Below, piece by piece: positions 4,380 to 34,191 of a stretch of 38,110 nt of DNA. Under the pieces are notes generated by a model. The model saw only the letters and a list, made by a program, of their open reading frames with translations. It ran no database searches and was not told the DNA's origin. Each line of letters starts with the position of its first letter. Positions within the stretch are counted from its first letter, which is position 1. A program made the translations under genes and the position numbers. The DNA lies in the NCBI GenBank assembly GCA_048213135.1, contig PS015348.1, forward strand, positions 25,786 to 63,895, given 5' to 3'. Source of the DNA: Reclinomonas americana ATCC 50394. Lineage: Eukaryota.

Positions 4380-4881
4380 AGAGCTCTCTCTCTCTCTCTC
4401 AATTCGTCTGGCTCTCTTCACTCCTTGCTTCTTCTTCTTCTTCTTCTTCTCTCATTTGTTCTTCTTCTCCTTCTTCTTATTCCTCTTCTTCTTCTTCTCC
4501 ATCCTCCTCCCTCCTCCTCCTCTTCTTCTTCTCATTTGTTCTTCTCCTTCTTCTTCTTCTTCTTCTCCACCTTCCTCCCTCCTCCTCCTCCTACTCCTCC
4601 TCTTCTTTGTTCTTCTCCTTCTTCTTCTTCTTCTTCTTTTCCTCTCCCTGTGTCCTAGTACCTCTTTTCCTCACTCTCTGCTCGTCTGTTCTTTTCAGTG
4701 CCTGCTTGCTTCTTCTTCTTCTCATCTCCCTGTGTCCTTGTGCCTCTTTTCCTCAACTCTCACTGTCTGCTCGTCTGTCTGGTTCTCATTACTGCTCTCG
4801 TCTTCTTCTCTTGCTTCTTCCTTTCTTCTCATTCTTCTCCTGTGCTGCTCTCTTTCTTTCTTTCTTTCTTTCTTTCTCTCT

Positions 4882-4933
<52 letters not shown>

Positions 4934-4961
4934 NNNNNNNNNNNNNNNNNNNNCGTAGTAC

Positions 4962-5010
<49 letters not shown>

Positions 5011-5134
5011 CACACACACACAAAGACACACACACAAAGACACAAGAAGACACACAATGACATACACACATACACACACACACACAAAGACACACAAAGA
5101 CACACACACACACAAAGACACACACACGTATACA

Positions 5135-5175
<41 letters not shown>

Positions 5176-5735: not shown

Positions 5736-6130
5736 ACAATGTCGGTGCGTGTTTTTTCCTGTGTGTTCTGTCGTTGCTCTTGCTGTGTGTTTGACTCGTC
5801 GCGTGGCAGTTCTCTGTTCGTGTGAGTGCGGCACATGATTCGTCGCTGTCGGTGATGGTGGAGGGCATGTCGACTNNNNNNNNNNNNNNNNNNNNNNNNN
5901 NNNNNNNNNNNNNNNNNNNNNNNNNNNNNNNNNNNNNNNNNNNNNNNNNNNNNNNNNNNNNNNNNNNNNNNNNNNNNNNNNNNNNNNNNNNNNNNNNNNN
6001 NNNNNNNNNNNCTGGCATCGCAGCGCCTTGGAGCGGGAAGCGCGGTTTGTTTGTCGGCAGTCGTTGCCTTCACGTTTCATCTCTCACCGTCTGCTGTGCC
6101 CACAGCTTGATCAACTTCAATCGTATCAAC

Positions 6131-9100
6131 ATGGCCTTCGAGGCGGTGGAAGAGGCCGTGCGTCTGCGCTGTCAACGAGCACTGGCTCAGTTCAGTCGCG
6201 ATCATCCCGATTTTGATGTGCGGGCGTGGGTGCCAAGCTTCACGCCTGCTGGGATGAATGCAGTGACAGTGAAGGCATGGCGTGAGCGACATGCTCCACT
6301 TGATCCCTCACGAGTCAAGTTGTTCGAGGAGAAGCAGCCTGTAATGTTGGCATGGCATGCTGCATTCGACTCCGACCCCTCATCCGACCCTCCGTGTGAC
6401 GGATTGGATACGACGGCACTGCACACCATCATGCTTTATGGTGGCTTTGTTCAGGATGACGGTCGCAAGCTGCTGCTGTTTGACTGTGCCGATGAACGGA
6501 AGGCTGTGCAGGAGCTTCACAGTGTCAGAAACAAGTTGAAGCACGATGAGATGACATTGACAGCTGTCACTGTGCAGCATTACCTTGGTGACGGCGGTGT
6601 TTTCCTCTCCATCCTCTCTCGACTGCAGCTGGCGGCCGATGAGCGTGCTCGATTCTGTGGTCGTATCTGTGAGGCACGCCACGCTCGTCACATTGTAGAT
6701 ACATTCGAGGAGCGACTGAATCAGCTGGCTGTCCGTGAGATGGTCTATTATCACGAAGACGAGAGTGTGCGCAAGGACATGCAGATGTATGTGCCACTGC
6801 TGTGCTCCCGTGATCGTGACGTCTCATCGCAAGACAAGATGGCGGATCTGTTGACGGAGGTGGATGTCTTCCTCTCCAACGCCAACACCACTCAGCGTGT
6901 GTTGATGCTGTTTGGCAACAGTGGTGCCGGCAAGACCACCACCATGTCGGTGCTGGCCGAGCGAGCGTGGCGACAGTGGCAGACGGGAGTGAGTCGACGG
7001 GTGCCTGTGCGTGTGCCTCTTGGTACACTGCGCAATGCCGACGAGCGATTGTTGGAGGAGGCACTGGAGCGACTGTCGCCCGAGTTGGGATTCAGCGAGG
7101 CGGATGTGCGACGATTGAAGGACGAGTCACTGCTGTTGTTGCTTGACGGGTACGACGAGTTATATCATGGTGTGAATCTGTTTGTCAAGAACCAGCTGGA
7201 TGTGTGTCGCGATGTGAAGGTGATAATCACCTGTCGCGGCGATTACGCACTGACGGCACTGGGTAGCGCGACGCAGTATCGAAGGTACTTTGCACCGGTG
7301 GATGCAAGAGGACAGTTGTGCATGCAGCAGCTGATGGAGCGACACATTGCGCCGTTCAACAAGGAGCAGATTGAGGAGTACTTTGGGCGACTGGTGCAAC
7401 TGGGTGGTGCTGACGGTGATGGCGAAGTGCGGTGGTCGACTGCCGAGGAGTACATTCGTGCATTGAAGAGTGTACATGGACTTGATGCACTGGTGGCGAA
7501 TCCATTCATGCTGACAGTGGTGGCTCGTGTGTTGCCGCAATTGGTGGCGAGTGGAGTGCAGCGACCGACTCGGTGCGATGTGTTTGACCGCTTCATTCGA
7601 CAGTGGATTGAGAGAGAGCAGGAGAGGCAGGCTCGTCTTGGTGCAGAACTTGTGCCGAGTGAGGAGACGTGTTTGGCATTCTGTGAGGGACTGGCGCGGT
7701 TGATGCACGAGCGGAATGTGGTGCGCGTGTCGGTGATGTCGATAAGTTCAATTGATGGCGGTGAGGAGGAGGATGATTTTGGCGGCGCTCCACTCGCCTT
7801 GCGACGAGTGGAGGAGGCACCGTTTGACAAGTTTCTCGGGCACAAGAATCAGCATGTGCGAGTGTGCTGTCCGATTGTGCGACGGTATGGGACGACGCAG
7901 TGGGGTTTCGTGCATCTGTCCTTGCTCGAACATTGTGTGGCACGGCATGTGTTTGCGTGGGAGACATGGGATGAGGAGATGAGATTGACGATGCAAGATG
8001 TGCAGCAGCATGTGTTAGCAGTGCGATTGCTGAATGATCGACCGTCGTTGGTGGAGCAGATTGCCGAGGTGGTGCGACGGTCTCCTGCGTTGCAAGCGAG
8101 ACTGTGGGAGGTGATTCTGTTGTCGCGGGTGGTGGATGAGGAGCGCGTGGTAACGGCGGCGGCGAATGCAGCGACGGTGTTGTGTGCAGCACAAGTGTCG
8201 TTGAGTGGGCGAGATCTGTCTGGTGTGCGAGTGAGGGGTGCGGATTTGAGGGACGCGGTGATGCACAGGACGGTGTGGAGGGGAGCGGATTTGCGAGGTG
8301 TGAATGTGTGCATGGCGTTTGCGAGGGAGGCGGATTTCAAAGGGGCGGATGTGTCGGGTGTGAAGTGGCCGAGGATGCCCATAGTGGGTCACACGGATGG
8401 GGTGTATGCAGTAGCAGTGACACCAGATGGTCAGCACATTGTGAGCGGTAGCGATGACGGTACTGTACGAGTGTGGTTGGTGGTAAGCGGCGAGGAGGTG
8501 CGTCGACTGGAAGGCCACACGAGTGCGGTGTGCGCAGTAGCTGTGACACCCGATGGCCAGCATATCGTGAGTGGCAGTGAGGACAAGACTGTACGGGTGT
8601 GGTCGGTGGCGAGTGGCGAGGAGGTGCGCCGACTGGAGGGCCACACGAGTTATGTGAATGCAGTGGCAGTGACACGCGATGGTCAGCACATTGTGAGTGG
8701 CAGTTTGGATGAGACTGTACGAGTGTGGTCAGTGGCAAGTGGTGAGGAGGTGCGCCGACTGGAAGGTCACATGAGTGCAGTATTAACAGTGGCAGTGACA
8801 CTCGATGGCCAGTACATTGTGAGTGGCAGTTGGGACACAACTGTGCGAGTGTGGTCTGTGGCAAGTGGTGAGGAGGTGCGCCGACTGGAAGGTCACATGA
8901 GTGCAGTATTAACAGTGGCAGTGACACCCGATGGCCAGCACATTGTGAGCGGCAGTTTGGACAAGACTGTGCGAGTGTGGTCAGTGGCAAGTGGCGAGGA
9001 GGTGCGACGGTTCGAGGGACACACTGACTACGTGTTCTCTGTCGTTGTCGCTCCCGATGGCCAGCATATTGTGAGTGGGAGCAGGGACGCCACCGTGCGT

Positions 9101-10183
9101 GTGTGGTCATTAGCGAGTGGGGAAGAAGTACGTCGATTGGTGGGACACGGCACCGCAGTGCTGACCGTCGCTTGCACTCCCGATGGCCAATTCATTGTCA
9201 GTGGGAGTGCAGACAAGACTGTGCGTGTATGGTCTGTGGTGAACGTTGAGGCCGTGCGACGGCACGAGGGGCACGTTGAATCGGTGCAGTATTGCGCAGT
9301 AACTCCCGATGGTCAGTTCGTCGTAAGTGGGGGTGATGAGAAGACAGTGCGAGTGTGGTCGGTGGCAAGTGGCGAGGAGGTGCGGCGGTTCGAGGGGCAC
9401 ACTGCCGCTGTGTGGTCGGTTTGCATCACCCCCGATGGTCAGTATGCGGTGAGTGGTGGTGCTGATAAGACACTGAGAATGTGGTCACTGGCGAGTGGCC
9501 AAGAGTTGCGACGGTTTGAGGGACACTCGAGGACTGTGCTTTTTGTCACCGTGACTCCCGATGGTCAGCATCTGGTGAGTGGGAGTAAAGACCTATCACT
9601 GAGAATGTGGTCGCTGGCATGTGGCGAGGAGGTGCGACGGTTTGGGGGACACAGTGGTCGAGTGAATGCGATTATCGTCACTTCCGATTGTCAGCACATC
9701 GTGAGCGGGAGCAACGACACCACTGTGCGAGTGTGGTCATTTGTGAGTGGTGAAGAAGTGCGCCGGTTGGAAGGCCATATCGATGCAGTGCATTCTGTTA
9801 CCGTCACTCCCGATGGCCAGCACATTGTCAGTGGAAGTGCCGACAACACCGTGCGTTTGTGGTCTTTCACAACTGGCGAGTTGGTGCGGCGATTTACTGC
9901 ACATATTGGACAAGTGTTTTCAGTTGCCATCACGCCAGATGGAGAGCACATTCTGAGCGCAGGCTGGGACAAGGTCGTGCGAGTGTGGTCCGTGGCGAGT
10001 GGCTTGGAGATTCAACGCTTTGAGGGACACAACGATCCGCTGTTATGTGTCGCCGTGACTCCTCAGCACATTGTTAGTGGAGGCGCTGACAAGACAATGC
10101 GAGTATGGTCACGGGCTGGAATGCTTCAGCGTATTATTGGCTCATTCCTCCCCGACTTTTCCGACGTCAGACAAGATTCGTGA
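6131..10183 (+). CDS. Intronless NLR-like protein: putative HEPN - NACHT - pentapeptide repeats - 14 WD40 (1350 aa)
   Basis: ATG at 6131. Walker A GNSGAGKT, Walker B LLLLLDGYDE, VIITCR, NPF, FVHLSLLE; pentapeptide repeats (RDLSG, ADLRD, ADLRG, ADFKG); 14 GH..W repeats. The N-terminus has LDTTAL and ELHSVRNKLKH. Confidence 0.92.
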   Translation: MAFEAVEEAVRLRCQRALAQFSRDHPDFDVRAWVPSFTPAGMNAVTVKAWRERHAPLDPSRVKLFEEKQPVMLAWHAAFDSDPSSDPPCDGLDTTALHTIMLYGGFVQDDGRKLLLFDCADERKAVQELHSVRNKLKHDEMTLTAVTVQHYLGDGGVFLSILSRLQLAADERARFCGRICEARHARHIVDTFEERLNQLAVREMVYYHEDESVRKDMQMYVPLLCSRDRDVSSQDKMADLLTEVDVFLSNANTTQRVLMLFGNSGAGKTTTMSVLAERAWRQWQTGVSRRVPVRVPLGTLRNADERLLEEALERLSPELGFSEADVRRLKDESLLLLLDGYDELYHGVNLFVKNQLDVCRDVKVIITCRGDYALTALGSATQYRRYFAPVDARGQLCMQQLMERHIAPFNKEQIEEYFGRLVQLGGADGDGEVRWSTAEEYIRALKSVHGLDALVANPFMLTVVARVLPQLVASGVQRPTRCDVFDRFIRQWIEREQERQARLGAELVPSEETCLAFCEGLARLMHERNVVRVSVMSISSIDGGEEEDDFGGAPLALRRVEEAPFDKFLGHKNQHVRVCCPIVRRYGTTQWGFVHLSLLEHCVARHVFAWETWDEEMRLTMQDVQQHVLAVRLLNDRPSLVEQIAEVVRRSPALQARLWEVILLSRVVDEERVVTAAANAATVLCAAQVSLSGRDLSGVRVRGADLRDAVMHRTVWRGADLRGVNVCMAFAREADFKGADVSGVKWPRMPIVGHTDGVYAVAVTPDGQHIVSGSDDGTVRVWLVVSGEEVRRLEGHTSAVCAVAVTPDGQHIVSGSEDKTVRVWSVASGEEVRRLEGHTSYVNAVAVTRDGQHIVSGSLDETVRVWSVASGEEVRRLEGHMSAVLTVAVTLDGQYIVSGSWDTTVRVWSVASGEEVRRLEGHMSAVLTVAVTPDGQHIVSGSLDKTVRVWSVASGEEVRRFEGHTDYVFSVVVAPDGQHIVSGSRDATVRVWSLASGEEVRRLVGHGTAVLTVACTPDGQFIVSGSADKTVRVWSVVNVEAVRRHEGHVESVQYCAVTPDGQFVVSGGDEKTVRVWSVASGEEVRRFEGHTAAVWSVCITPDGQYAVSGGADKTLRMWSLASGQELRRFEGHSRTVLFVTVTPDGQHLVSGSKDLSLRMWSLACGEEVRRFGGHSGRVNAIIVTSDCQHIVSGSNDTTVRVWSFVSGEEVRRLEGHIDAVHSVTVTPDGQHIVSGSADNTVRLWSFTTGELVRRFTAHIGQVFSVAITPDGEHILSAGWDKVVRVWSVASGLEIQRFEGHNDPLLCVAVTPQHIVSGGADKTMRVWSRAGMLQRIIGSFLPDFSDVRQDS
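8384..10110 (+). repeat. Coding tandem array of 126-bp WD40 units with high internal identity
   Basis: Consensus EGHxxxVxxVAVTPDGQHIVSGSxDxTVRVWSVASGEEVRRL repeated 14 times. Confidence 0.95.
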
Positions 10184-10464: not shown

Positions 10465-13400
10465 TCACGGTAATCTCCGCTTGCTGTGCTGCTCCAGCAG
10501 CGCCGTGCACCTCGCTCTTCTGTCCTCCGCCGACCACAGCTCCGGATACTGCCATCACCCGTAAAGTCAGCAGAGACTTCAACAGACTCGCCAACAACAA
10601 ACAAACACACAACACTCACCATCATCGCCAACTTGGTAACCTTCTCGGCATGTGTGGGAATGAAATTCCAGTGGATAATATACGTGAGCTGCAAGTTCTC
10701 CGTGAGCTGCAGGAGGTCGTTCTGATGCCTGAAAGCAAAGTGGCCTGCGAGGAGCACAGCGACAGTGCGGTTAGTCGAGGGTCACGGAATTCTAACAATC
10801 GATAGCTCGACCCACTCTCTCACTCCCATCCATGCCTCAAAAAGAAAGATGCCCGCATTCCGAACCCCTATGATAGAACCGACAAGCAACCCTCAGCACA
10901 ACCTTGCCTAACTCAGTCACTCCAAGCTTCAAAAGAAAGAGGCATGGATAAGCATCCTTCGCTCCCTCAACGTATAGAAGAGACGCTCACTGTCTCTCGT
11001 CGAGAAGAAAAATATGACTCGCATCCCTTAACATCCTCGCGTCTCACTCATTGACGTACAAGTCGCTCAACATCACAAACAACAGAGAGGAAAAGCACCC
11101 TCGCAGCAGGGAAGGGCACCACCANNNNNNNNNNNNNNNNNNNNCAATTGTTCATCGACAAAAATGGTGGGCCACGCACGCATCACCAAACAAAAGAACA
11201 AGATTCTCTTGCTCCTTGCTGCATGCAGGAGTCAAGGTGAGATTGCCATGAATGACGATCACCCTGCTCAGATGGCGGCAATCAAACTCTGTATGGACAG
11301 AATGCTTCCCGTCTCCTTGTTTGAGAAAGAAGGAAAGCAGAGAGTTCACACTCAACGAAATCTCACTTCAAACTACTTCCCACATGTCCCTCCCTCCCCT
11401 TTCCCCTTTCCCTTCACTTATGCTACGTGCAGGAGTCAAGGTTCACACTCAACGATATCGCACTTCCTCAGCACAAACTACNNNNNNNNNNNNNNNNNNN
11501 NNNNNNNNNNNNNNNNNNNNNNNNNNNNNNNNNNNNNNNNNNNNNNNNNNNNNNNNNNNNNNNNNNNNNNNNNNNNNNNNNNNNNNNNNNNNNNNNNNNN
11601 NNNNNNNNNNNNNNNNNNNNNNNNNNNNNNNNNNNNNNNNNNNNNNNNNNNNNNNNNNNNNNNNNNNNNNNNNNNNNNNNNNNNNNNNNNNNNNNNNNNN
11701 NNNNNNNNNNNNNNNNNNNNNNNNNNNNNNNNNNNNNNNNNNNNNNNNNNNNNNNNNNNNNNNNNNNNNNNNNNNNNNNNNNNNNNNNNNNNNNNNNNNN
11801 NNNNNNNNNNNNNNNNNNNNNNNNNNNNNNNNNNNNNNNNNNNNNNNNNNNNNNNNNNNNNNNNNNNNNNNACATGTCCCTCCCTCCCCTTCCCCCTTTC
11901 CCTTCACTTATGCTGCATGCAGGAGTCAAGGTTCACACTCAAGGATATCGCACTTCAAACCAAACTACTTCCCCCTGTCCATCCCTCCCCTTCCCCTCGC
12001 CCCTTCCCCTCGCCCCTTCCCCTCCCCTTTCCCCCCTCCCCCTCCCCCCTTCTCCCCCATCTACCCCTTCCCCTGTTACCCCCCCTCCCTTCCTCACCAC
12101 TCGGAAACTGCAACGGATGCAACGTACACACCCGCACCGACTTCTTGCCACCCGCCCCCACCGCCGCCACCGGCGCCTCCATGTACCTCGCCCGCATGTG
12201 CGCCTCATTCCACCCCCCATCCAGCTCCGCAAACCGCGCCGACCCACTAAACACCCCCTTTTCCCGCAGCACCGCCTGCAGCGTCACCTGATCGTTGTCG
12301 CCGGAGACCGAGTTGATCTGCAGCCACCGATCGTAGAGCGCCACCGTGCGCGGACTGGCCGTCACAAAGTAGATGCCGGCGTTGTACATGCCCGGCGCCT
12401 GCCGCACGTACTTGTCGAGGTCGGTGCGCTTGCCGGTGTTGTACTCGTCATCAATGGCAAACGTCACGTCGCACTGAGCGAGGTCGGGGAAGGCGAGCAG
12501 CGGGCGCAGCAGCGACGTGTCGGCGTCCGCGTGGAAAATGGCGAATCCGCGATACAGAATGTGCCGCATGAGAATGTCGCGCTTCTTCAGCATCTCGCGA
12601 TACAGCACCGAGTTGAAGCGCTGCGGCTGATTATCCAGCGCGAAGAACGACGGCGAGAAGAACACCGCCGCCTGCCCCCGCGACGCAAAGCTCTCCGTCA
12701 AGTGCGCCGTCAGCGCCTGCGTCCATGACAGGATCAGAATGCCGCCAAAGCCCGGCGCCGCTGGCACCGCCGGCAGCAACCCGAAATCGAGCGCATTGCA
12801 GAGCCAGTTGTCGAGAAAGTCGTTGAAGCCGCCCGACGCCTCCGTCACCACCAGTACCGAGTTACGCGGGAACTGCAGCAGCACGCGATCCAGCGCCTCC
12901 GCCACCTCCCGCTTCATGTACTGCGAGTCCTCGGCCGGTGGATCAAACGGAGTCGGGTCAATGTCGCCCGTGGGCACCGGCAACGCGATGGGCTCCTCAG
13001 AGGGTGGAGGCGGAGGATCGACAACAGGCGGCGATTCCTCCACAGTTGACGCCTCCTCCTTGTCATGTGGCGGTTGCTCCACCACTGGTTCCTCCTTTGC
13101 AGGTGGTGGAGGTGGAGGTGGAGGTGTCTCCTCCTGAGGCACCTCCTCCTCCGTCACAGTAGTCGCGTTCTTGTCCGACTCTTCCGCGACCTCCAACAGC
13201 GATTGTGGGACTTCGGCATCGGCCGCTGCATCGACGCGATCGAGTGCGGCGACCCACTCTTCCCGCGCACGATCCCTCTGCTTGGTGAGTTGTGCGGCGA
13301 GATTCGCTGCCACATGTGCCACGTGCGACTCGGTGCTCTGCATCTGTCGCGTGATCAGAATGTGCACCGCCAGCATGAGGGTGGCGGTGAGCGCCAGTAG

Positions 13401-13466
13401 TAGAGGCATGGAGCAGCGGCGGAAGGGCCGTAGTGCCTCTGATGAGGTGGGAGTGGTGAGACTCAT
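10465..13466 (-). CDS. Nucleotide-diphospho-sugar transferase (GT77-like), type II membrane protein; exons 13466-12098, 10744-10620, 10548-10465 (about 525 aa)
   Basis: N-terminal TM helix, Pro/Glu stem, NWLC, FHADADT (DxD), YNAGIYF and NDQ motifs. In-phase GT-AG splicing gives FPSG-HFAF..IIHWNFIPTHAEK..YPELW. Confidence 0.85.
11217..11975. repeat. Intronic repeat of about 95 bp (gcaggagtcaaggttcacactcaa..cacttc..aactac), at least 3 copies across a gap
   Basis: Copies start near 11217 (interrupted), 11421 and 11911. Confidence 0.8.
11239..11343 (+). other. 105-bp foreign-looking insertion encoding EIAMNDDHPAQMAAIKLCMDRMLPVSLFEKEGKQR (phage-like)
   Basis: The segment is absent from the sister repeat copies, stop-free in one frame, and flanked by GT on both sides. 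Phage similarity is from recall only. Confidence 0.6.
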
Positions 13467-13654
13467 TTCGCGCGTGGAAGAAACGAGAAAAAACGACGCA
13501 CAGGACGCGGTGACGTCGAGGCGTTTGTTCGCGCGATTTGAGAGGGGGAGGCGTGTGGTGGGTGGTGTGTGGTGGGGAGTGTGTGGTGCACCATGGGAGA
13601 TGTTGTGAGTGGTTGCGGAAGGAGAAGGGTGAGAAAGAGTGACGGGACAGACCA

Positions 13655-14130
13655 ATGTGTCCGAGTGCAACAACCTTTTCGCCTCTTGCTGCATTCACGT
13701 GGCGATGAAAACGTGTGGCACGTATCGGAACGCATGCACCCCACTTGCATCCTTGGCGGCAGCGACAGGAGATACTTGCATCGCGAGGCATCCGTGAAAC
13801 CGTCAAGGAACAGAGTGTCCGAGTACAGGGTCTGTTCTTGCTCTTGCTGTCTTCCTGTGGCGACGTTAACGTGTGGCACGTGCTAATGGACATACAGCAC
13901 ACGCGCTCTGTAAGTGGCAGCGACAGGAGATACTTGCATCGCGGGGCATCCGTGAATTCGAAACCGTCACAGAACAGAGTGCCGAGTACAAATTGTGTTC
14001 GCACTCTTCCTGTCTTCCTTTGGTGACGGAAACGTGTGGTGCGTACTAAAGAATATGTCTGGAACTTGCACGCTTGACGGGGGCGAGAGAAAATACTTGC
14101 ACCCCGAGTAAGTCGCGAAACCGTCACGAA
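13655..14130. repeat. Tandem repeat of about 160 bp, 3 diverged copies
   Basis: gtg(t)ccgagt at 13657, 13815 and 13979; shared aacgtgtgg and atacttgca..gaaaccgtca. Confidence 0.85.
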
Positions 14131-15581: not shown

Positions 15582-17592
15582 ATGGCCAATCGTGCAGTGC
15601 TTCAGGTCTTTGAGGCCTATCAGAAGGCACGCGTCAACTTTGTGCAAACAGTCGCCGAGTTGGCCAATCGGTGAGCGCACACACTGACACACACACTCTT
15701 TCTCTCTCCCTTTCTCTATCTCTGTGCGTGCGACCAGTGACAGTTCATTTCTATCGTCCGTTTACATGACTCAGGGCGTTTACTCACCCCTCCCCTTCGC
15801 ACACACACACACAGACCGGAGAACATTGAGGCTCTCCAGCATGCAGGCGCCATGGCCTTGCTCCGCCCACTCCTCCTCGTTGCGTCTCACCTCAACACAC
15901 ACAAAACACACAAGACGCACACGTGAGAGGGAAATGGCCATGACTGACTCTCTCTCTCTCTCTCTCACACACACTCTCTCTCTCGCACACACACACACAC
16001 ACACTCTCTCTCTCACACACTCACTCACTCACTCTCTCCATCTCTCTCTCACAGGACAACGTGCCCTCGATTCAACAAAGTGCGGCCATGGCACTCGGTC
16101 GACTGGCCTCCTTCTCTGAGGAGCTCGCCGAGGCTGTCGTCAGTGGAGAAATCCTTCCGCAATTGGTCTACTCGTTGTCCGAGCAGAACGTTTCGTCAGT
16201 TTCCTCCCGCGCGCTCTGATGGTGTCCGCTTACATAGTGCGTGTTTTACACANNNNNNNNNNNNNNNNNNNNNNNNNNNNNNNNNNNNNNNNNNNNNNNN
16301 NNNNNNNNNNNNNNNNNNNNNNNNNNNNNNNNNNNNNNNNNNNNNNNNNNNNNNNNNNNNNNNNNNNNNNNNNNTCTCCCTCTTTCTCTCCCTCTCTTTC
16401 TCTCCCTCTTTCTCTCCCTCTCTTTCTCTCCCTCTTTCTCTCCCTCTTTCTCTCCCTCTTTCTCTCCCTCTCTTTCTCTCCCTCTGCCTCCCCCCTCTGC
16501 CTCCCCCCTCTGCCTCCCCCTCTCGCCTCCCCCCTCTGCCTTCTCCCTCTGCCTCTCCCTTCCCCCTCCCCCTTTCCCTCTCTTCCCCTTTCCCCTTCTG
16601 CCGTTCCCCGTCTCCCCCCTATCCCTTTCCCCCTTCCCTTTCGCTCACCTCCCTTTCCCCCTCATCAGGTGTGCTCGTGCCTCGCCCAAATCGCCAAGCA
16701 CTCGTTCGAGCTGGCCGAGTTGGTGGTGGAGGGCGAGATCTTCCCGAAGATCTTCAACCTGCTGAAGGACCTGGACGAGGTGGTGCGCAAGAACGCCGCC
16801 ACCTGCATCCGTGAGATCAGCAAGCACACGCCCGAACTGGCGCAACTGGTGGTGTCGTCCGGTGCTCTCGGAGTCATTGTCGACTACGTGGGCGAGACCA
16901 AGGGCAACAACCGCCTGCCGGGCATCATGACTCTCGGCTACATTGCTGCCTTCTCCGACGCCCTCGCACAACATGTGATTGCCAATGGCGGCGTAGTGCC
17001 GCTGGCGCAGGCGCTGGACTCGGAGAAGGAGGATCACCTGCGTGCGGCCGCTGCCTGGTCACTGGGTCAGATTGGTCGCCACTCGTCAGAGCACTCCAAG
17101 GCCGTGACCGACGCCGAAGTGTTGCCACTGCTGCTCGACGCGTTCCTCGACCCGCAATCGTCGGACGACCTGAAGACCAAGGCCAAGCGCGCACTCAAGT
17201 CGGTTGTGCAAAAATGCTTGCATCTGCCCGCCCTGCAACCACTGCTCTCGCGCGCGCCGGTCAACATTCTCACACACGTCACGGGTCAGTACGCCAAGGT
17301 GCTGCCGGGCGATCGGACAGCAAGACGAGCATTTGTGTCGGACGGTGGTCTGGAGATGCTGCAGCGCATTTCCGAGCACGCACCCGAGGGCTCTGAGTTG
17401 CAGTTTCGTCTCTTCTTCACTGCTCTCCCTCACTCTCTTTGCTCGTGTGCTCATCATTGTCGCTCGTGTTACAGAAAGAACATTGACACGATCAACGCAT
17501 GCTACCCCGACGAGATTGTCAAGTACTACTCACCCGGCTTCTCCAAGAACTTTGACAAGCTCATTGACAACTACGCACCGCCACTCGAGTAA
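15582..17592 (+). CDS. SPAG6: Axonemal central-pair armadillo protein SPAG6/PF16; exons 15582-15670, 15815-15878, 16055-16189, [gap], 16669-17402, 17475-17592
   Basis: MANRAVLQVFEAYQKARVNFVQTVAELANRPENIEALQHAGAMALLRPLLLDNVPSIQQ..LVYSLSEQN, REISKHTPELAQLVV, AAAAWSLGQIGRHS, CYPDEIVKYYSPG. All visible introns are GT-AG and in phase. Confidence 0.95.
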
Positions 17593-17741
17593 TAATTACC
17601 ACGACGACAACAACAGTAGCTTGTTGCTCTTTGTTGTTGTGAATGCTTGTTCTTTTTTCCCGAGTAGTGAAGGCAACGAAAAGTGTACATTGTTTCTGTC
17701 TGTGTCCTCTCTCTTGCTTGTTTGTTGAAGAAGATGTGGCG

Positions 17742-18103
17742 ATGCGCGACCGTCGAGTGCCACTCTCTCGCGTGTTGCAAGTGGCGACTGTGATGCTCCT
17801 GGCAATGCTCATGGTGTATGTGCTTGTTGTCACACAGAAGAGAGTTTCGTGTGTTGATCTCCCCAGTGTCTTTCTGTGCATGCTGACACTGTTTGCTCTC
17901 TCTCCCTCTCTCTTCTTCTTCCTATCAGCGTGGTAACGAGAGTGTGTCTGTGAGTGATGCAACTCTGCAGCGCATTGATGATGGCGAGAATGATTGTGAT
18001 GATGATCAAGTGGGATTTCCGTGGTCGCTCTTTGGGATGGACGAGTCGGCGACGCCTGTGCTGTTGAAGGCGCCGTTGGTTGCGGTGAGCTTGGTGGGGG
18101 TTT

Positions 18104-18138
<35 letters not shown>

Positions 18139-20621
18139 CTCAACTTGTCATTCAGTTTCTGTCTTCCTCTTTATCACTCTCCCTCACTCTGTCTCTGCTT
18201 CTCTGCATTGCCATCGCTGTCGCAGCTTCTCTTGACTCCTGAGTGTTCCTCGCTCATGTGTCTCCTTCCTTTTCCCTTCCTTTGCATGCACCCCTCTCTC
18301 ATTCTCTCACTGCATGTCACTCTGCTTCTCTGTATTACTCTCTTTCTCTCTCTTTGTGCCTCTGCTCGGTACTTGCATCTCTTCCTCCTTGCACGCTCAT
18401 AGTTCTCCTCCATTTCCCCTTCCTCTTCCCTCCTCCGTCCCCTCAGCCCATCAACACCAGCGACTGGCTGCTGGTGAGCGAGGACAGTGTTCGCCTGCAA
18501 TCACCACGATCGGGCGCCTCGCAAGTGCTGGTGGAGAACGATGCAGTGTTGTTGAACGACGGTGGCATGTGTGGCGTGACACTGCAGCGGTTACCGCTTT
18601 TTGACTTGGTGCGTGTGTGTGAGGCGACGATTATGCACTCGTCTCCCAGATCACTGACACTTGGAAGTGCAGCCTGCCGACTTTTGTGTCGCGGCACCGA
18701 TTCGGGCGCCTCGCAATCGACCGCGCGAGTTGGGCTCACCTGTCGTCACCAAGGACGACGGTCGAGTCATGTGTCACGACAAGAGTGGTCCTCTGCTCTC
18801 CTTTGTTGCCACGGTGCACAATGCGGTGCGTGAGGTGACTGTCAACGGGAGAGAAAGAGCCTCTCCTCATACCATGTTCCTCCCGCTCGCAGCTGGTGAC
18901 ACCAGATGGCAGGGTGTTCACTCGACAGCACATGTGGGCGTCACATCGACTGGATGGGGTCGATCGTGATGCATCGTACTCGTGGAAGACCAGCGAATCA
19001 GTGCTGCTCGTCGACACGGTGGTATCATTGGTCCAGCATCACGGCGACGCCTTCTATCACCTGCTCGGAGAGGTGCTTCCGCGCTTCATGCAAGTGTGGA
19101 ACGTGGTGCGGGAGCAGGAACCGCACGCCCTGCTCCTCGTGCGTGACAATGCGTATGGATCGCACGTGGTGTATGACTATTTCGCACTGCTGGGCATTGG
19201 CAGGGAACGGGTGCGCTTGGGTGTGCATGGCCTGTTCCTTTCACGTCGGAAAGCTCATTCCTGTTGTCGCAGATCCTTCTGAATCCCCCCACAGTGTTGG
19301 CACGACGAGTGCTTGTTGCGCAGGGTGTGCGGGGAGGCGCCGCACAGCCGGCCTTGTTGCATGAAATGTCTCGTGTGTTCCACTCGCTGCATGGCGCGAC
19401 ATTGCGTGCACAGGTTCAGGAATTGAGAAGCAGTTGCGCATCTTGAGCTTTGCTTGTTCGCCAACTGGCTGGGTCTCATCTTAATCTTCGCCACAGAGCA
19501 TAATGAGGAGTGGCACCAATCTGCTCTCCACAATGGTCGCCCTTGGCGGTATGTGCTGGTCATCCAACGACAGGGCACTCGATCGCTTACCACGATGGAG
19601 AGGGTGTGTACTTCTTCTCGCACTTATGCCTTCGTTGTCTCTGACGATTCTTTGTGTGTGGCACAGGTCCTGTCGCTCATTGGCGAGGAGTTCCCGCACT
19701 GGCATGTCTCCTCGTTCGACACCACTCGATCGGCACTGCACAGCGTGGCGCAGTTTGCTCGCAGCGATATTGTGTTGGGGCCACACGGAGCGGCCTTTGC
19801 GCATCGTGCGTTTCTCGCTCGNNNNNNNNNNNNNNNNNNNNNNNNNNNNNNNNNNNNNNNNNNNNNNNNNNNNNNNNNNNNNNNNNNNNNNNNNNNNNNN
19901 NNNNNNNNNNNNNNNNNNNNNNNNNNNNNNNNNNNNNNNNNNNNNNNNNNNNNNNNNNNNNNNNNNNNNNNNNNNNNNNNNNNNNNNNNNNNNNNNNNNN
20001 NNNNNNNNNNNNNNNNNNNNNNNNNNNNNNNNNNNNNNNNNNNNNNNNNNNNNNNNNNNNNNNNNNNNNNNNNNNNNNNNNNNNNNNNNNNNNNNNNNNN
20101 NNNNNNNNNNNNNNNNNNNNNNNNNNNNNNNNNNNNNNNNNNNNNNNNNNNNNNNNNNNNNNNNNNNNNNNNNNNNNNNNNNNNNNNNNNNNNNNNNNNN
20201 NNNNNNNNNNNNNNNNNNNNNNNNNNNNNNNNNNNNNNNNNNNNNNNNNNNNNNNNNNNNNNNNNNNNNNNNNNNNNNNNNNNNNNNNNNNNNNNNNNNN
20301 NNNNNNNNNNNNNNNNNNNNCCAAGACAATGGTGATCGACCGTGCTTTCACGTGGAAGTGCTGCCAGGAACTGGGCACACGCCGCCGAAAACGTGGAATC
20401 CGGTTGCGTAGCCTTCTGGACGATTGTGTTCTGATTTAGCAGCTCATTGGCGTGTGCAGGTGCATGTGATGATGGCCGTGTATCAAGGGTGCAGCACGTA
20501 TGTGTGGTTTGACGAGAGAGCTGGCCTGCAGGATTCGCTGGTGCTCCCGGTGGCACAGGCACGCTGGCTTCTTCGTCACTTGGATGGCGTGTCGCGACGC
20601 GAGGAGAGGGCTGGTGATTGA
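17742..20621 (+). CDS. GT61-like (DUF563/EOGT-type) glycosyltransferase, multi-exon, with N-terminal TM anchor
   Basis: TM VATVMLLAMLMVYVLVV; AFYHLLGEVLPR, VLVIQRQGTRSL, FARSDIVLGPHGAA, HVEVLP; about 8 short GT-AG introns. The paralog shows that the 19822-20320 gap has zero true length. Confidence 0.8.
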
Positions 20622-21379
20622 GGAAGTGAAAACCGGGCGTGCATCTGGCGATGTACCTGTGACCCACAGCGAGCCCGGGTGGCTTGCAAAATTGGTGCAG
20701 CACTGGCTTGTCGAGGGTAGGTAACGGCAAGGGTTGACATCCCGACATCCATTTGCTCAACTTGGAGTCGTCGAGTGTACTGATGACGCTGCTGGCCAGG
20801 TAAGTCGGAATCATGGGCACAGGAGAAAGCCGGTACATTCTTCGTTCTGAGAAGAATATCGGCCTTGCTTGCATGTCGCCGGTGCCACGTAGGCATTAAG
20901 CGGGGCAACCGACAGCTCGAAAGGACCGCGCGCTGTCCGAANNNNNNNNNNNNNNNNNNNNNNNNNNNNNNNNNNNNNNNNNNNNNNNNNNNNNNNNNNN
21001 NNNNNNNNNNNNNNNNNNNNNNNNNNNGGCAAACAATCAAGTAGCTTCCAGTTGAAGATCTATTTACCGAATTTGCTGTGCTGTGTACGATCGCAGAAAA
21101 CGCCCTGCGTCTATGCAAGTGCGTCAAGTCCACTGGTCAACCACGCTTATGCGGTGAAGATCGCAGTTCTCGAGCTTGTTCGGAGCCCCAAGAACGAACA
21201 CACACACACAAGGAACCTGCTGCTGCCTCAAGATTGGTGTCTGTGTTGATGTTTTGGATACGGTTGAACTTGGTCATCAAGACAGCTGTTGCTTGTTTGT
21301 TGGTGAATGAAGTTGTTGTTGTTGTCTCTCGCGGCCAACGAGCAAACGACGTGACTGACATTGGATCGCAATAACTACT

Positions 21380-21441
21380 TTACATCAATGAACATTTGCT
21401 TCTCTGCGGTCTTCTCTCGGAGGCGGCAACGGCATCGTGTG

Positions 21442-21472
<31 letters not shown>

Positions 21473-24400
21473 TGGTTGCTGTTGTTGTTGTTGCTGCTGA
21501 GCTTGGTCGCGACGACGTCTGCACTCTGCCAGCCACCCGATGGCATCCTTCGTATCCGAATCCTCTTCACCAAGCACCGCTCGCCGACCATCCACACACT
21601 CCACCAGCAGTGCCTCTGCCTCGGCCCATCGCTGCTGCTTGGTGAGCACAATGCCATAACCGTACATTGTCACCAACGTGAACTCATGCCTGTCTCCCAT
21701 CACTTCACGTCGTCCCTCCAAGCACTGACGGTACAAATCACCGGCTTCCGCCAGCGATTCGCGTGTATCTTGATGCTCGAGAGAAACAGCAAGATTGTTC
21801 ATCGAAGCAAGAGTGTCCGGATGTCGATCTCCCAGCGATGCTTGCCTCAACTGCAGGCAGTCTCGAATCAACTGAACTCTTTCCTCCAGGCGACTGCTAT
21901 CTCGAATACATGAGGCGACATTGTTCATGGACACCAAGGTGTCGGGATGCTCAGCTCCAAGAACCAATCGTCTCACCTCCCAGCACCGTCGATGCAGTGT
22001 TCCAGAATCGGAATATCGTTTGCGATTAAAGTGGTGTCTTCCCTGCCAGTGCAGCGTCCACAGCGAGTCCGGATGACTCTCACCCAGTGTCGCACACTGC
22101 CGCTCATGACACTGCACCAGCAGCGGCAAGTTGCTCGAATCGTAAGCGAACCACATCAGGCACCGCAACGCATCAATCCTATCCAGCACAGTCATCTCGC
22201 CACTGCCATCCCTCTCCCACTCCTCGCACAAATGCCACGCCTGTTGCCACGCTACGTTACGCTCGTCCAACTGACGAAGCATATTAAACAACCACGCACG
22301 ACATTTTGCCACACCATTGACCAACCGTCGTTGCAGTGGACTCATCGCAACGTCACCATCGGCACGTTGTACACACTCCGTCACGCGTCGCACAATCGAT
22401 AAGGCCACTGCTGTGTCGAATCCCACCGAAGGCATTCCTCCCATGCCACACAATCCAGCTATCCACTCCACCGCCCCACACTGCACCAACAGCCCATTCA
22501 CACCAGCAGCATCACTCGCCCACATGCCATCATCCTCGCCCAACCGTCGCCACACCGTGTGCAGCATACTGAGCAAGTCACGTGACACCAATAGCACACC
22601 GTCGCTGTCATTCCACATATCAATGCCATTCAGCACACAACACACCAGTCGCACAATCAGTCGCTGCGCCCTCGACACTGCACTTCCACACCGACCCACA
22701 ATCCACCCAGCAATCTCATCGTGCACTCGATACTCCACAACCACACTACCACTCTCCCCCACCTGCTCACCACACAACACACGGGCCACACTGTCCATGC
22801 TGCTACTGACACCCACTGTGGCCAGATTTGACAAACACAGACCCTCCAGCACATCCTCCACTCCTTCGCCATCACCACCACCCACCAACTCATTGCGCCG
22901 TGAACGCACTCGCTGCTCCTCCTCCTCACTCATCTCGTCAAACTGTAGTCGCTCACCCACCACCTCGGGTGCACGCTGCCGTCTCTCCCGTGCCAGCGCA
23001 TGCAGTCGCAGTCGACGCACACATTGACCCAACTCCACCAGTCGACCTGCCGCCTCTTCATCTTCATCGGCACTCCCAGAGGTGGTCATATCGGGGATCA
23101 CTCGCAACACACCCAGTGCCACTCGTGCGAGTGCCACTGTCACTGGCAAGCCGAGTTCCTTGCACGCCGTGATCAGCAGCAACACACGACGTGCTGCTGC
23201 TGTCTGCGACATCACATTGCGTTCCAGCAGCTGCGACAGCGCGTCACTACCAATGCCACGCAGCACCTCCTCCAGTTGCGCTCCCACCAGCTGTGCTGCT
23301 GATTGTGACAGCAACCAGCTGCATGATGAACAAGAGAAAGAAAAGAGTGAGTCTTCTCATCCACACAACTCACTCTCACTGAGACTCACTCACCCAACAC
23401 AAGCACTCACTCGCAGTGCACTCTTCTCCTGCTGTCCACTTTCCAGAGCCTCCACAATCCGTCGTCGTACATCCACCGACACCTTGTGAAGCAGTCGCTC
23501 CTCCACCAGCTGCGCAATGTCCTCGTTCTCCACATCTACCACCCGCACACACTCCACCTCTGTCTCGTGCATCATCGAATCACGAATCTCATCTGCCACT
23601 TGTTCATATCGACTCGTCACCACCACAATCGGTGCCACCATTCCATCTGCACAGACACATAATGATGCACATCGAGTCAGGATCCAACATGCAAGCAAGA
23701 ATGAGAATTCTGTCACACATGACGACACGTACCCTCATCAGCACATTGAACAACACTCCTCACTTGCTCCGCCAATCCCACGTTGTCCAGCACCATCACG
23801 CCACTCGATGCATGCATCAACTGCCACAGAAGACGACGCACTGGCTCCACCTCGCCACTCGCCAGCAGCGCATCCACCTGACCGGCCATTCTTCTCCCCT
23901 TCACTTCATCCACTCGCATCTGCGCCGTCACAAAGGCGCGCAGACACTCGCCCAGTGCACTCTCCGCCTGCAGCATGCAGCATAACGAGAGGGAAAGAGT
24001 CAGAATGACACGTCAGAAGAGATGACGCAACATGAAAGACAACATGCATTTTTCTCAGCACACCTTCACATGCTCCGTCGCATCACCCACATGCCCGCGC
24101 ATCTCCACCGACACGGCCGATCCCTTCCATCGACGAGTCGCCAGCAACTCGGTCACCAGCAGCTCGGCCAGGAACGACTTGCCAGTGCCACCATCTCCCG
24201 TCAACATCACCATGATTGGATGGTGTGCTGCGCAAGAATCATCCACCACAGACAACATGATGAGACACATGAATGAGGAGAAGGTAGGCAGGGGAGAAAG
24301 AGAAGGAACACCCAACCTTTAACACCATCCACAATGCGTGTAGCGAGTGAAGCGGCCAGTGCACGTCGACTCGGGAAGCGGAACGCGGTCACTGGATTGA

Positions 24401-25863
24401 CGGTGCGGGCGATGAGCGGTGTCTTGGGTGGGCGATTGCTGTCTGGTGATGTGTGGCACAAGGAGAGTGAGCAAATGAGCACAGCAATGCACATTCCATG
24501 CAGGTCCATAATGGAACACACCTGCAGCTGGAGACGAAAGAGGCGAGATGCTTATTGTGTCAAGCCGTTGGTGCACTCGCTCCATCTCGACTCGAATCTA
24601 TCCATCACACGCAAGTGAGAAACAATCAGCCATAAGCACGCGACCGCCTCCCTCATGCATTCCCACTCAACCTGCTCCACATTGGCTGCTATCGATACCT
24701 GATCTGCTTGACTCAGCGCACCTGCATTCACACACAGCCAAGGCAGCATCAGCTTCCACATTCAATCATATCATCCACAGACATGCACCAGCCATCACTC
24801 TCTTCACTCACCATCACGAGCCTCGTTCAGTTGCACCACCAATTCCTCCTCCACATCCCTGCCAATCTGCAGTCGCCGCACAAGCTGGTGCAACTCGCCC
24901 TCTCCTCCTCCTCCGTCACCGAGCAGAGGCACAAAGAGCGCACGAGCTCGTGCAGGACTCGCCTGCTCAAACATCTCCATCATTCGCTCAATCGCATTGC
25001 GCTGTGTGACAATGAGAGAGTGATAGGTACAATCACACAGAGAGGGATATCACACTCCTCTCTCTCCAATCTCAGTCTCACACACTCACCACATCGCCAG
25101 CTGGAATCAGACGATCCGGCTCGTCACTCGGGTGTTCTCGATGACCCGCCAACAGCAAGATCGAACAGCACAGCATCGCATCAAACGAACTGCAGTCATA
25201 CAGCTGGCCTCGCTGACACCACTCGCACACCATCTGCTGCTCCTTTTCATCGTTCAACTGGACACACAGGTCCACTCCGTCTGGCATGGTGCTGCAATTG
25301 GGAAGAAGGCACAAAGAAAGAGAGGATGCTGGTGAGTGAGGGAATGTGTGTGACAAGAAAGAGGAGGCATTTATCAGGGATAGAATGTGGAGTCGTGTGG
25401 TGAGACATGAAGAGTGCGAGAATGGGGAGAAAGGGATGACCAGAGCATCACCATCTGCCAATGGCTTATGACAATCTCTTCCTCTCTAATTCACATCTCC
25501 ATCTGCATCTTGTCATTGTGTGCCTCCATCTTCCCCACACACACTCACCGCACATCACGCTCACTCGGCGCCTTGCTCCACTCATCGACGTGATTCACAT
25601 CGGGATACGAATCGAGAAACGCCGGCAGCACTTGCTCGAGTTTGGATTGCAGAGCGCGGGTGCATGGACGAGACAGGGCCTTGGCAAGGCGCATCATACA
25701 TTCTTCATCACCAGCATCGTGATGATGACTGCGCGAGGGAGAGAGGAGGAGAGGGAACGAATCACACACAATGTGAGAATGATGATGATGATGCATCTGA
25801 CAACAACACAATGAGAGAGAGACACGCACGCAACTCATGCGACACTCCACTCCCACTCGCCAT
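21380..25863 (-). CDS. STAND (NB-ARC-like) ATPase-TPR receptor, copy A, about 10 exons, with polyQ tail and CaaX
   Basis: Walker A GDGGTGKS (24175-24198), Walker B VMVLDNV..AEQVR, sensor VVVTSR, kinesin-light-chain-type TPRs (LGxxHPDTLxSMNN), ending QQQ..RSKCSLM*. Internal exons splice in phase. The start (MASGSG at 25863) is tentative. Confidence 0.82.
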
Positions 25864-25926
25864 GATGACGCGTCACAACTAGATGAAGAAGAACAGCACA
25901 ATGACAGATGCACAGGGGATGACACA

Positions 25927-25974
<48 letters not shown>

Positions 25975-26387
25975 NNNNNNNNNNNNNNNNNNNNTTCTGT
26001 CACAATAAGAAGCGGAGAAATGCAACAACGCACGCTCCTTCTCCTCCTTTCTCTCTCTTGCACACACACACAGTGGGGAATGACACTGACACACAACAGA
26101 ACAGAGAACACACAAGCTCACTTCCGCTCACAGCAGCAGTAACAGACTTTGTTGTCAACCAAACGAATGAACCATTGAAGTCCAGTCTCTCTCTCCTCTT
26201 CTCCGCTCTCATGCGCCGCGCCACTCACGATGACAGCGATGACGACGACGACGAAGAACCCGAGTCACTGCTGACACGCAAACGACGCATTCGCATGCCC
26301 ACACCTCCTCTTCCACCAATGCTTCCCCGCCTCCTCCCGTGCTGCTGCCTCCACCGCCAGTGCTGCCACCAATGGGTTTGTCTGTGT

Positions 26388-26419
<32 letters not shown>

Positions 26420-26588
26420 CAAGGAAGGAGAGGATGTTGGTCTATTTCGATGTTCCCCTTCACTCTCTCACTCCTCTCACTCTCTTCTCTCCCACACAGC
26501 CTCGTCGGCGGCATTGTCAGCACCGCCTGCCTCGGCATCTTCTGATGGACGACTCTCTCGATGAACCGCGCGATCTTGACAACATGCA

Positions 26589-27382
26589 TTCGAGCTTGGC
26601 CGAGTTGGTGATGTGCTTCCCCGAAGATCTTCCACCTGCTGAAGGACCTGGACAAGGTGCGTGCATCCGCGAGATCAGCAAGCACACGCCCGAACTCGCA
26701 CAACTGGTGGTGTCTTCGGGTGCTCTCGGAGTCATTGTCGACTACGTGGGCGAGACCAACGGCAACAACCGTCTGCCGGGCATCATGAGACTCTCGGCTA
26801 CATCGCCGCCATTCTCCGACGCCCTCGCACAACACGTGATTGCCAATGGCGGCGTGGTGCCGCTGGCGCAGGCACTGGACTCGGAGAAGGAGGATCATTT
26901 GCGAGCGGCGGCCGCCTGGTCACTGGGTCAGATTGGTCGCCACTCGTCCGAGCACTCGAAGGCCGTCACCGACGCCGAGGTGTTGCCGCTGCTGCTCGAT
27001 GCGTTCCTCGACCCGCAATCGTCGGACGATCTGAAGACCAAGGCCAAGCGCGCACTCGTCGGTGGTGCAAAAATGCCTCCACTTGCCGGCGCTGCAACCA
27101 CTGCTCTCGCGCGCCCCCGTCAACATCCTCACACACGTCACTGGTCAGTACGCCAAGGTGCTGCCGGGCGATCGGACAGCAAGACGAGCGTTTGTGTCGG
27201 ATGGTGGACTGGGGATGCTGCAACGCATTTCCGAGCACGCACCCGAGGGCTCTGAGTTGCAGTTTTGTTTCTTCCTCACTGCTCTCTCCCACTCTCTTTG
27301 CTCGTGTGCTCATCATGATTGCTCGTGTTACAGAAAGAACATTGACACGATCGACGCATGAGACGCCGACGAGATTGTCAAG
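26589..27382 (+). pseudogene. SPAG6: 5'- and 3'-truncated SPAG6 duplicate
   Basis: Close copy of about 16705-17523 including the intron, with several indels, a 2-nt deletion near 27057 and a TGA near 27359. Confidence 0.85.
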
Positions 27383-27974: not shown

Positions 27975-28071
27975 TTACATCAATGAACATTTGCTTCTCT
28001 GCGGTCTTCTCTCGGGGCCGGCGGCAACGGCATCATGTGGTTGCTGCTGCTGCCGCTTCTGCTGCTGTTGC

Positions 28072-28138
<67 letters not shown>

Positions 28139-32515: not shown

Positions 32516-32579
32516 GATGATATGCCACAATGCGAAGAACAGCAACAGCGCACAGACAGATGCACAGGGGAATGACACG

Positions 32580-32610
<31 letters not shown>

Positions 32611-33181
32611 ACAATAAGAAGCGGAGAAATACAACAACTCACTCTCTTTCTCTTCTCCTTTCCTCTCTCTTGCACACACACACACAGTGGGGAATGATAC
32701 TGACACAGAACGAGAACAGAGAACACAAGCTCACGTCTGCTCACAGCAGCAGCAGCAACAGAACTTGTTGTCAACCAAACGAATGAACCACTGAAGTCCT
32801 GCCTCTTCCCTTCTCCGCTCTCATGCGACGTGCCACTCACGATGACAGCGATGACAGCAATGACGACGATGACGAACCCGAGTCACTGTTGACACGCAAA
32901 CGACGCATTCGCATGCCCACACCTCCTCTTCCACCAATGCTTCCCTCGCCTGCTCCCGTGCTGCTGCCTCCTCCTCCTGTGCTGCCATCAATGGGTTTGT
33001 CTGTGTGTGCAAAGAGAGAGAGAGAGAGGATGTTGTTCTATTCCTCTGTTCCTGCTCTCCTCTCTCACTCTCCCTGTCCCTCACATACACTGTCTCGTCA
33101 GTGGCCTTGTCAGCACCGCCTGTCTCGGCATCGTCTCATGGACGATCCTCTCGATGAACCACGCGATCTCGACGACATGCA

Positions 33182-34048: not shown

Positions 34049-34191
34049 TAATTACCACGACGACAACAGCATGAACAGCTTGTTGGTTGGTGTTGTGAAT
34101 GGTTGATCTCTTTTCCCGCAATGAAAAGTGTACATTGTTTCTGTCAGTGTCCTCTCCCTTGTTGTTGTTGTTTGTTGAAGAAGATGTGGCG

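Follow-up and report, generated by a model that had tools for sequence, protein, structure and literature searches.

The stretch of DNA from Reclinomonas americana ATCC 50394 analysed here (contig PS015348.1, positions 25,786 to 63,895 of the forward strand; hereafter the window, 38,110 nucleotides (nt) long and numbered from its first letter) carries an intronless gene, P0001, that encodes a NOD-like receptor (NLR) with an orphan N-terminal domain. Judging from its sequence, this domain (the N-domain) is probably a HEPN-like or HEPN-derived effector. The open reading frame (ORF) of P0001 begins with the ATG at 6131 and ends with the stop codon at 10181-10183, running through 1350 codons without a stop and encoding 1350 amino acids (aa). 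Its product has the characteristics of the NACHT-clade NLR/STAND (signal transduction ATPases with numerous domains) proteins, i.e., a NACHT domain scoring above the Pfam threshold, both Walker motifs, and a C-terminal sensor made of repeats (Table 1). An earlier account of this DNA, made from the sequence alone (the preliminary description), had proposed a helical N-terminal domain followed by NACHT and WD40, an architecture that is borne out by Pfam. It had the order of NACHT and WD40 right, but had overlooked the pentapeptide repeats that lie between them (Pfam Pentapeptide at aa 689-723: expectation value (E) 6.1e-7, 29.3 bits, cut-off 20.2).

Table 1. Coordinates of P0001 and its features in the window.
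Feature	Residues (aa)	Position (nt)	Strand	Basis
Whole intronless ORF P0001		6131..10183	+	Translation; Pfam; coding-type guanine-plus-cytosine (GC) content by codon position
Orphan helical N-terminal domain, candidate HEPN-like effector	1-245	6131..6865	+	
GLDTTALHTIMLY, candidate for helix 2 of HEPN, including the acidic residue D93	91-103	6401..6439	+	Translation
KAVQELHSVRNKLKH, candidate HEPN helix 3 ending in Rx4H	124-138	6500..6544	+	Translation, DNA
NACHT nucleoside triphosphatase (NTPase) core	256-373	6896..7249	+	Pfam NACHT, E 5.5e-8, 33.3 bits vs cut-off 26.7
Walker A GNSGAGKTT	262-270	6914-6940	+	Intact
Walker B LLLLLDGYDEL	334-344	7130-7162	+	Intact
Pentapeptide repeats, between NACHT module and propellers	689-746	8195..8368	+	
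WD40 repeats (14, of 42 aa each)	753-1340	8387..10150	+	Pfam WD40, E 2e-149, 14 stretches

The 14 WD40 repeats are sufficient to form two seven-bladed propellers. They follow the consensus GHxxxVxxVAVTPDGQHIVSGSxDxTVRVWSxASGEEVRRxE and recur every 126 nt with a DNA identity of 71-83% between units, a homogeneity which suggests that unequal exchange between the repeats is still ongoing. The variability is mainly confined to seven positions of the repeat (3, 4, 5, 7, 8, 23 and 25), at which the column entropy amounts to 2.3-2.9 bits, compared with at most 1.6 bits elsewhere. Such a pattern, in which a small number of hypervariable positions are set in a rigid scaffold, supports the view, already expressed in the preliminary description, that the WD40 region is a variable sensor. 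We take the repeats to be comparable, in their high mutual similarity as well as in their hypervariable positions, to those of the fungal HNWD (HET-E type) NACHT-WD40 NLRs.

The GC contents at codon positions 1/2/3 are 0.67/0.40/0.59 in the N-domain and 0.65/0.43/0.65 and 0.65/0.48/0.57 in the rest of the gene (NACHT and WD40 parts), whereas those of the 117 nt upstream of the ATG are different (0.46/0.54/0.67). The N-domain is therefore coding, and position 6131 is a plausible start. Its two remaining frames contain 10 and 14 stops. An assembly gap (N run 5876-6011) is located 120 nt upstream of the ATG, and the reading frame is open through this gap, so that the N-terminus could be longer. 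The DNA upstream of the gene is rich in polypyrimidine and microsatellite sequences (4428-5172 and 6040-6130), including (CTT)71 at 4428-4638, (CT) runs, and (AC)104 at 4963-5172. About 25 nt ahead of the ATG there is a pyrimidine tract ending in CAG, which might serve the 5' untranslated region as an acceptor for splicing or trans-splicing.

According to the passages on the fold in the HEPN survey of Anantharaman et al. (2013; PMC3710099), HEPN domains are four-helix up-down bundles in which an Rx4-6H motif closes helix 3; the arginine is usually followed by N, D or H, helix 2 often has an acidic residue, and other positions are poorly conserved. The N-domain contains an Rx4H motif with a polar residue after the arginine (R133-N134-x3-H138), formed by the hexapeptide RNKLKH (R133-N-K-L-K-H138, nt 6527-6544), and, upstream of it, the segment G91-LDTTALHTIMLY-103 (nt 6401-6439), which includes D93. 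Translation and DNA reproduce the positions given for these elements in the preliminary description (M1 at 6131, the segment from L92 onward, and R133-H138). An upstream LDxxxL helix is, according to the preliminary description, typical of Swt1- and DZIP3-like HEPN domains. Six-frame translation of the window (76,216 codons) yields nine instances of RNxxxH, and the looser pattern Rx4H occurs 14 times in P0001, 12 of them inside the WD40 repeats in the form RRxxGH or, once, RRFTAH.

HEPN_Swt1 (PF18731) was the top-scoring Pfam family in all four cuts of the N-domain that contained the motif (E 0.064, 0.048, 0.018 and 0.039; 14.0, 14.4, 15.8 and 14.7 bits), and the sole Pfam match of the 96-aa cut. 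The match places aa ~121-150 on profile positions 74-102 of 115. No other family of Pfam, NCBIfam, PADLOC or PHROGs was found for the N-domain at E <0.05, and scans of the latter three yielded no family at all. In the ESM atlas, in which scores below 0.9 are to be taken as leads only, the clusters nearest to aa 1-240 were HEPN_Swt1 (0.81) and HEPN_DZIP3 (0.79), and those nearest to aa 40-200 were HEPN_DZIP3 (0.78) and HEPN_Swt1 (0.77), with further HEPN_DZIP3 clusters at 0.75-0.77. Among the ten best matches with a family assignment, all 10 belonged to the HEPN clan for the first of these queries and 9 for the second.

A reference set was drawn from genomes of the cyanobacterial phylum, 45 of 401 of which matched PF18731, and none of the 401 PF18738 (HEPN_DZIP3). 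Twenty-eight of the 30 loci returned were used, L091 and L103 being left out because their reading frames were unsuited to extraction; 14 more divergent Swt1 places were added later, resulting in a set of 42 sequences. The PF18731 domains of these loci (L081-L110) are N-terminal in open frames of either ~400 aa or ~1100-1370 aa, a layout consistent with the proteins combining HEPN with an AAA+ ATPase (Ava_2192-type) that are treated in part of PMC3710099. The N-domain scored 7.1 bits with a hidden Markov model (HMM) built from the 28 sequences, a value equalled by one of 1000 motif-preserving shuffles; six of the eight other RNxxxH segments of the window scored between -1.9 and 0.6 bits (two are unreported). 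With the 42-sequence HMM the score was 11.0 bits, and none of 1000 motif-preserving shuffles came as high (maximum 10.5). When the N-domain was compared with the 42-sequence alignment by hhalign, it obtained a score of 23.0 (P 0.008), which was attained by one of 299 motif-preserving shuffles, and the alignment comprised aa 91-139, i.e., helix 2 together with helix 3, and matched D93 to the Asp that is conserved in helix 2. Ten of 18 residues are identical to our cyanobacterial Swt1 consensus (ERxxVxELxxVRNKxxH). Moreover, none of seven other RNxxxH segments of the window (a 23-aa segment was omitted) matched any HEPN family in a Pfam scan, in which HEPN_Swt1 was the only match of the real segment (E 0.039). 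By these sequence comparisons, it is the surroundings of RNKLKH, rather than the motif itself, that exceed chance.

Several observations weigh against a HEPN assignment. With nine occurrences of RNxxxH in the window, the bare motif counts as no evidence. None of the four cuts reached the HEPN_Swt1 gathering threshold of 27.5 bits, just ~27-30 of the 115 profile positions were aligned, and HEPN_DZIP3 (gathering threshold 27 bits) gave no Pfam match at E <=10 in the four motif-containing cuts. One of the control segments had a chance Pfam match to HD-ZIP_N at E 0.0036, so that values of 0.02-0.06 are within the noise for this sequence. A third of shuffled proteins reach 0.8 in the ESM atlas, and the 0.75-0.81 of the N-domain are below the 0.9 mark. 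The hhalign probabilities are low (8.3% and 4.9% in two runs), an HMM of helix 2 only gave no score for the real upstream region, and K137 takes the place of the small residue (Ala) found in the cyanobacterial Swt1 set. It should also be noted that the lines of sequence evidence in favour of HEPN share the same ~20-50 residues and are therefore not independent. The proposal of a HEPN domain in the preliminary description thus gains a HEPN_Swt1 lead in Pfam, HEPN neighbours in the atlas and motif flanks that beat shuffles, but reaches no curated threshold; of the two families it had put forward for comparison, both are atlas neighbours and HEPN_Swt1 has a sub-threshold match, but HEPN_DZIP3 has no Pfam match.

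To these points are added the results of the homology searches, which found no homolog of the N-domain in any collection searched, and hence no conservation of D93, R133 and H138 to compare. A word-indexed search of 5.8 billion clusters with aa 1-240 gave 1115 candidates, none of which scored, and there were no matches among PDB sequences or, by tblastn, among plasmids. Metagenome contigs gave 223 pattern matches, none of them confirmed for the N-domain. None of the N-termini of 115 NACHT homologs resembles the N-domain (best E 0.48), and within the window itself nothing was found for it below E 1.3. Phmmer against 1.84 billion representatives gave one match only, P0004, which we judged to be spurious, this being a 400-aa tandem-repeat translation to which aa 192-231 were matched in seven stretches.

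AlphaFold2, run without homologs in the alignment, returned no confident fold: the model of aa 1-245 had a mean predicted local distance difference test score (pLDDT) of 36.5, and that of aa 56-180 one of 44.4. In addition, the aa 56-180 model has strands at aa 112-119 and 156-164, where the aa 1-245 model, which is all helices by DSSP, has helix. Both of these low-confidence models have helices at aa 59-81 and 94-103 (94-102 in the second), as well as a helix at aa 120-138 (122-138) of which H138 is the last residue. This end would correspond to the position of the motif in HEPN domains, where helix 3 ends, and may be a weak hint in that direction. Thus, the claim that the motif lies on a helix agrees with both models, but at the low pLDDT values given above. 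A Foldseek search of the PDB with the aa 1-245 model gave no match at E <=0.001, none of its 31 rows being a HEPN, and the model is too poor for this result to carry weight.

The remainder of the protein has many relatives. A search with aa 200-740 yielded 396 homologs, and the best 120 of the 396, which are 26-31% identical, share the order NACHT, pentapeptide, WD40. The named homologs among the matches listed are nearly all from Mortierellomycotina, with some from their Mycoavidus/Glomeribacter endosymbionts; P0038, P0080 and P0092 are examples of proteins with this chassis. A scan of genome contigs with the NACHT region gave no match. Although the order of the modules in these fungal and endosymbiont proteins is the same, their N-termini are unrelated to that of P0001. 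According to precomputed domain lists, PF23948 is found in many of the Mortierellomycotina homologs and kinase families in one, and a homolog sourced from EukProt, P0115, has PF13676 at its N-terminus; we take PF13676 to be TIR_2 and PF23948 to be Arm-like. The NACHT-pentapeptide-WD40 module, or chassis, thus bears interchangeable heads, and aa 1-245 therefore constitute its effector slot. The differing heads found on the chassis in fungi, in endosymbionts and in P0115 are suggestive of cross-kingdom transfer accompanied by head swapping.

Taken together, HEPN is the best available reading of what the sequence of the N-domain has to offer, and it has to be weighed against three others. The N-domain might have no relation to HEPN and be a helical effector or adaptor specific to its lineage, such as a bundle of the membrane-disrupting or death-fold-like type found on many fungal NLRs, in which RNKLKH arose by chance. 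The frequency of RNxxxH in the six frames of the window would fit with such an origin, as would the sub-threshold nature of every database match, the failure of the helix-2-only HMM, the lack of homologs and of a confident AlphaFold2 fold, and the unrelated N-termini carried by relatives of the NACHT-pentapeptide-WD40 module. However, a chance motif is not expected to have flanks that outscore almost all shuffles (equalled by 0-1 of 1000 and 1 of 299), and none of the seven natural RNxxxH controls matches HEPN. In addition, two methods, Pfam and the ESM atlas, single out the HEPN clan from thousands of families, and Pfam, NCBIfam, PADLOC and PHROGs offer no alternative family at E <0.05. We consider a non-HEPN bundle unlikely, yet worth taking seriously.

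It is improbable, in our opinion, that the domain has a genuine HEPN fold but serves as a non-catalytic RNA-binding or oligomerisation module, as in several HEPN families. Inactive HEPN versions, including eukaryotic Swt1, are listed in Table 1 of PMC3710099, in the part of it that concerns these families, and K137 in front of H138 departs from the small residue of the active cyanobacterial set; on the other hand, the R, the polar N and the H are present at canonical spacing, and there is an Asp in the candidate helix 2. Still more remote is the idea that P0001 is a decaying or unexpressed gene copy, or that its 5' end is mis-assembled, in which case the N-domain as read would be no functional unit. 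The gap 120 nt upstream of the ATG, with the frame open through it, and the absence of P0001 from a collection of 15 billion proteins (exact look-up of four proteins of the window, none of which is in it) would be in line with this idea. It is contradicted by the 1350 codons without a stop, the intact Walker A and B motifs, the coding-type GC by codon position that extends throughout the N-domain and not upstream of 6131, and the 10 and 14 stops in the other two frames.

If the N-domain is a HEPN domain, it would be a very divergent one of the Swt1/DZIP3-like kind, with helix 2 at ~aa 94-103, accompanied by D93, and helix 3 at ~aa 120-138, closing with R133-N134-x3-H138. We lean slightly towards a complete model in which P0001 is a ligand-gated ribonuclease (RNase) receptor. 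In this model, the WD40 propellers would be the sensor of a ligand that docks on their hypervariable surface, and the NACHT NTPase would be the switch, exchanging its nucleotide and then oligomerising. Oligomerisation would draw the N-domains together, allowing paired HEPN domains to build a composite Rx4H site that would cut RNA independently of metal, with translation arrest or cell suicide as the outcome. These steps are modelled on how STAND NTPases behave and on HEPN RNases such as RNase L and Cas13, as presented in part of PMC3710099. What the sequence shows is the architecture, the motif and the intact Walker A and B motifs, whereas the HEPN fold, the RNase activity, the activation by induced proximity and the immune role are inferred. 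The proposed logic, a sensor that controls the dimerisation or juxtaposition of HEPN Rx4-6H sites, would be shared with RNase L/Ire1 (KEN-type HEPN), Cas13 and Csm6/Csx1 as these are portrayed in the same portion of that survey. They differ from P0001 in the switch, which would be a STAND NTPase in P0001 instead of a pseudokinase, a CRISPR RNA or CARF; past the motif there is no sequence relationship, and the RNase activity of P0001 is predicted. In RNase L/Ire1, Cas13 and Csm6/Csx1, a sensor gates non-specific RNA cleavage, which leads to growth arrest.

Among HEPN families, the Swt1-like clade (PF18731; eukaryotic Swt1, CXorf38, and the Ava_2192-type and HEPN-STAND-TPR proteins of bacteria) has in common with P0001 the helix-3 pattern ER..V.EL..VRN...H and, going by hhalign, a candidate helix-2 Asp, and fuses to NACHT/STAND, as the candidate domain of P0001 does (PMC3710099, in the part dealing with such fusions). 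The alignment of P0001 with this clade is, however, confined to the region of helices 2 and 3, with scores of 14-16 bits where the cut-off is 27.5, and P0001 lacks the conserved Trp residues and the helix-4 pattern seen in the cyanobacterial members. The metazoan HEPN_DZIP3 NLRs of corals, Nematostella and oysters have the same order of a HEPN-type domain, NACHT and C-terminal repeats (LRR/WD40), as far as they are covered in the relevant parts of PMC3710099 and PMC10236652, and HEPN_DZIP3 clusters are among the ESM-atlas neighbours of the N-domain. In contrast to them, P0001 has an N-domain without a Pfam match to PF18738 and without phmmer similarity to any of the 1.84 billion representatives, and its chassis is of the Mortierellomycotina/endosymbiont type, not the animal type.

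Fusions of this sort are well represented in print. The passages of PMC3710099 on domain architectures report that the DZIP3/hRUL138 HEPN is fused in animal lineages to TPR, RING, ankyrin, CARD, NACHT, DEATH and LRR domains, that this family is expanded in Nematostella, oyster and the unicellular Capsaspora, and that CXorf38, of the Swt1 clade, has NACHT as a fusion partner in cephalochordates and cnidarians; HEPN-STAND-TPR proteins from bacteria are listed there too. Coral NLRs are rich in N-terminal DZIP3-like HEPN domains according to part of PMC10236652, and oyster proteins with an N-terminal HEPN and C-terminal WD40 repeats appear in part of PMC8195603. Since HEPN-NACHT/STAND fusions have thus been published for cnidarians, cephalochordates, molluscs and bacteria, P0001 would be a divergent addition to a known fusion type, and its value would lie in the phyletic spread and in providing an experimentally tractable case, not in a new principle. 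Our literature searches on HEPN with NACHT in protists and on HEPN with STAND effectors in unicellular eukaryotes found only unrelated reviews, and PMC9815663, which surveys the effector domains of fungal NLRs, has the words 'HEPN', 'RNase' and 'ribonuclease' 0 times in its main text. A HEPN domain on a NACHT-pentapeptide-WD40 chassis in such a host group is not described in the literature searched. There is a real possibility, which we advance tentatively, that a unicellular non-animal eukaryote has here an NLR bearing an orphan, fast-evolved HEPN RNase on a chassis that otherwise has TIR, kinase or Arm-like heads. If so, immunity through RNase-based suicide or dormancy, with a STAND NTPase as its switch, would reach past animals and bacteria, and P0001 would offer a simple one-polypeptide system for studying how an NLR oligomer activates HEPN by induced proximity. 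An active HEPN RNase in this place would make the gene a compact natural case of receptor-gated RNase found beyond animals and bacteria, and would be further evidence for the free exchange of effector heads among NLR chassis across kingdoms. It would also imply that HEPN effectors can diverge out of the reach of sequence searches, and that NLR surveys based on Pfam thresholds under-count them.

The window as a whole looks like eukaryotic nuclear DNA, with 11 assembly gaps, long microsatellites such as (AC)104 and (CTT)71, sparse genes, large segmental duplications, and poly-Q tails; scans for tRNA and Rfam families found none. An ORF of 579 aa at 11955-13694(-) has a proline-rich stretch followed by a nucleotide-diphospho-sugar transferase domain (PF03407, E 4.4e-14), and a search for its homologs was empty at E <=1e-5. 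The paralogs P0002 and P0003 (610 and 623 aa) are located at 21380-23212(-) and 27975-29846(-), with a partial inverted copy at 37063-37998(+). Long poly-Q tails and, in the C-terminal part, TPR_10/TPR_12 repeats (E 1e-22 to 1e-28) are common to both; their N-terminal ~430 aa are without a family, and no NTPase domain was detected in them. TPR_10/12 are the usual sensor repeats of NLRs of the NB-ARC type, and P0002 and P0003 may be NLR-derived or NLR-associated. Segmental duplications with 85-92% nucleotide identity (self-blastn) pair 16804-21000 with 33255-37045, 21438-25956 with 28075-32607, and 25996-27382 with 32605-33979; they span the greater part of the window's right half, and the NLR gene is outside them. 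Within the duplicated units there are ORFs with HEAT/Armadillo repeats at 16219-17592(+) and 26434-27255(+) (HEAT E 8.7e-10; Arm E 3e-8 and 3.9e-5).

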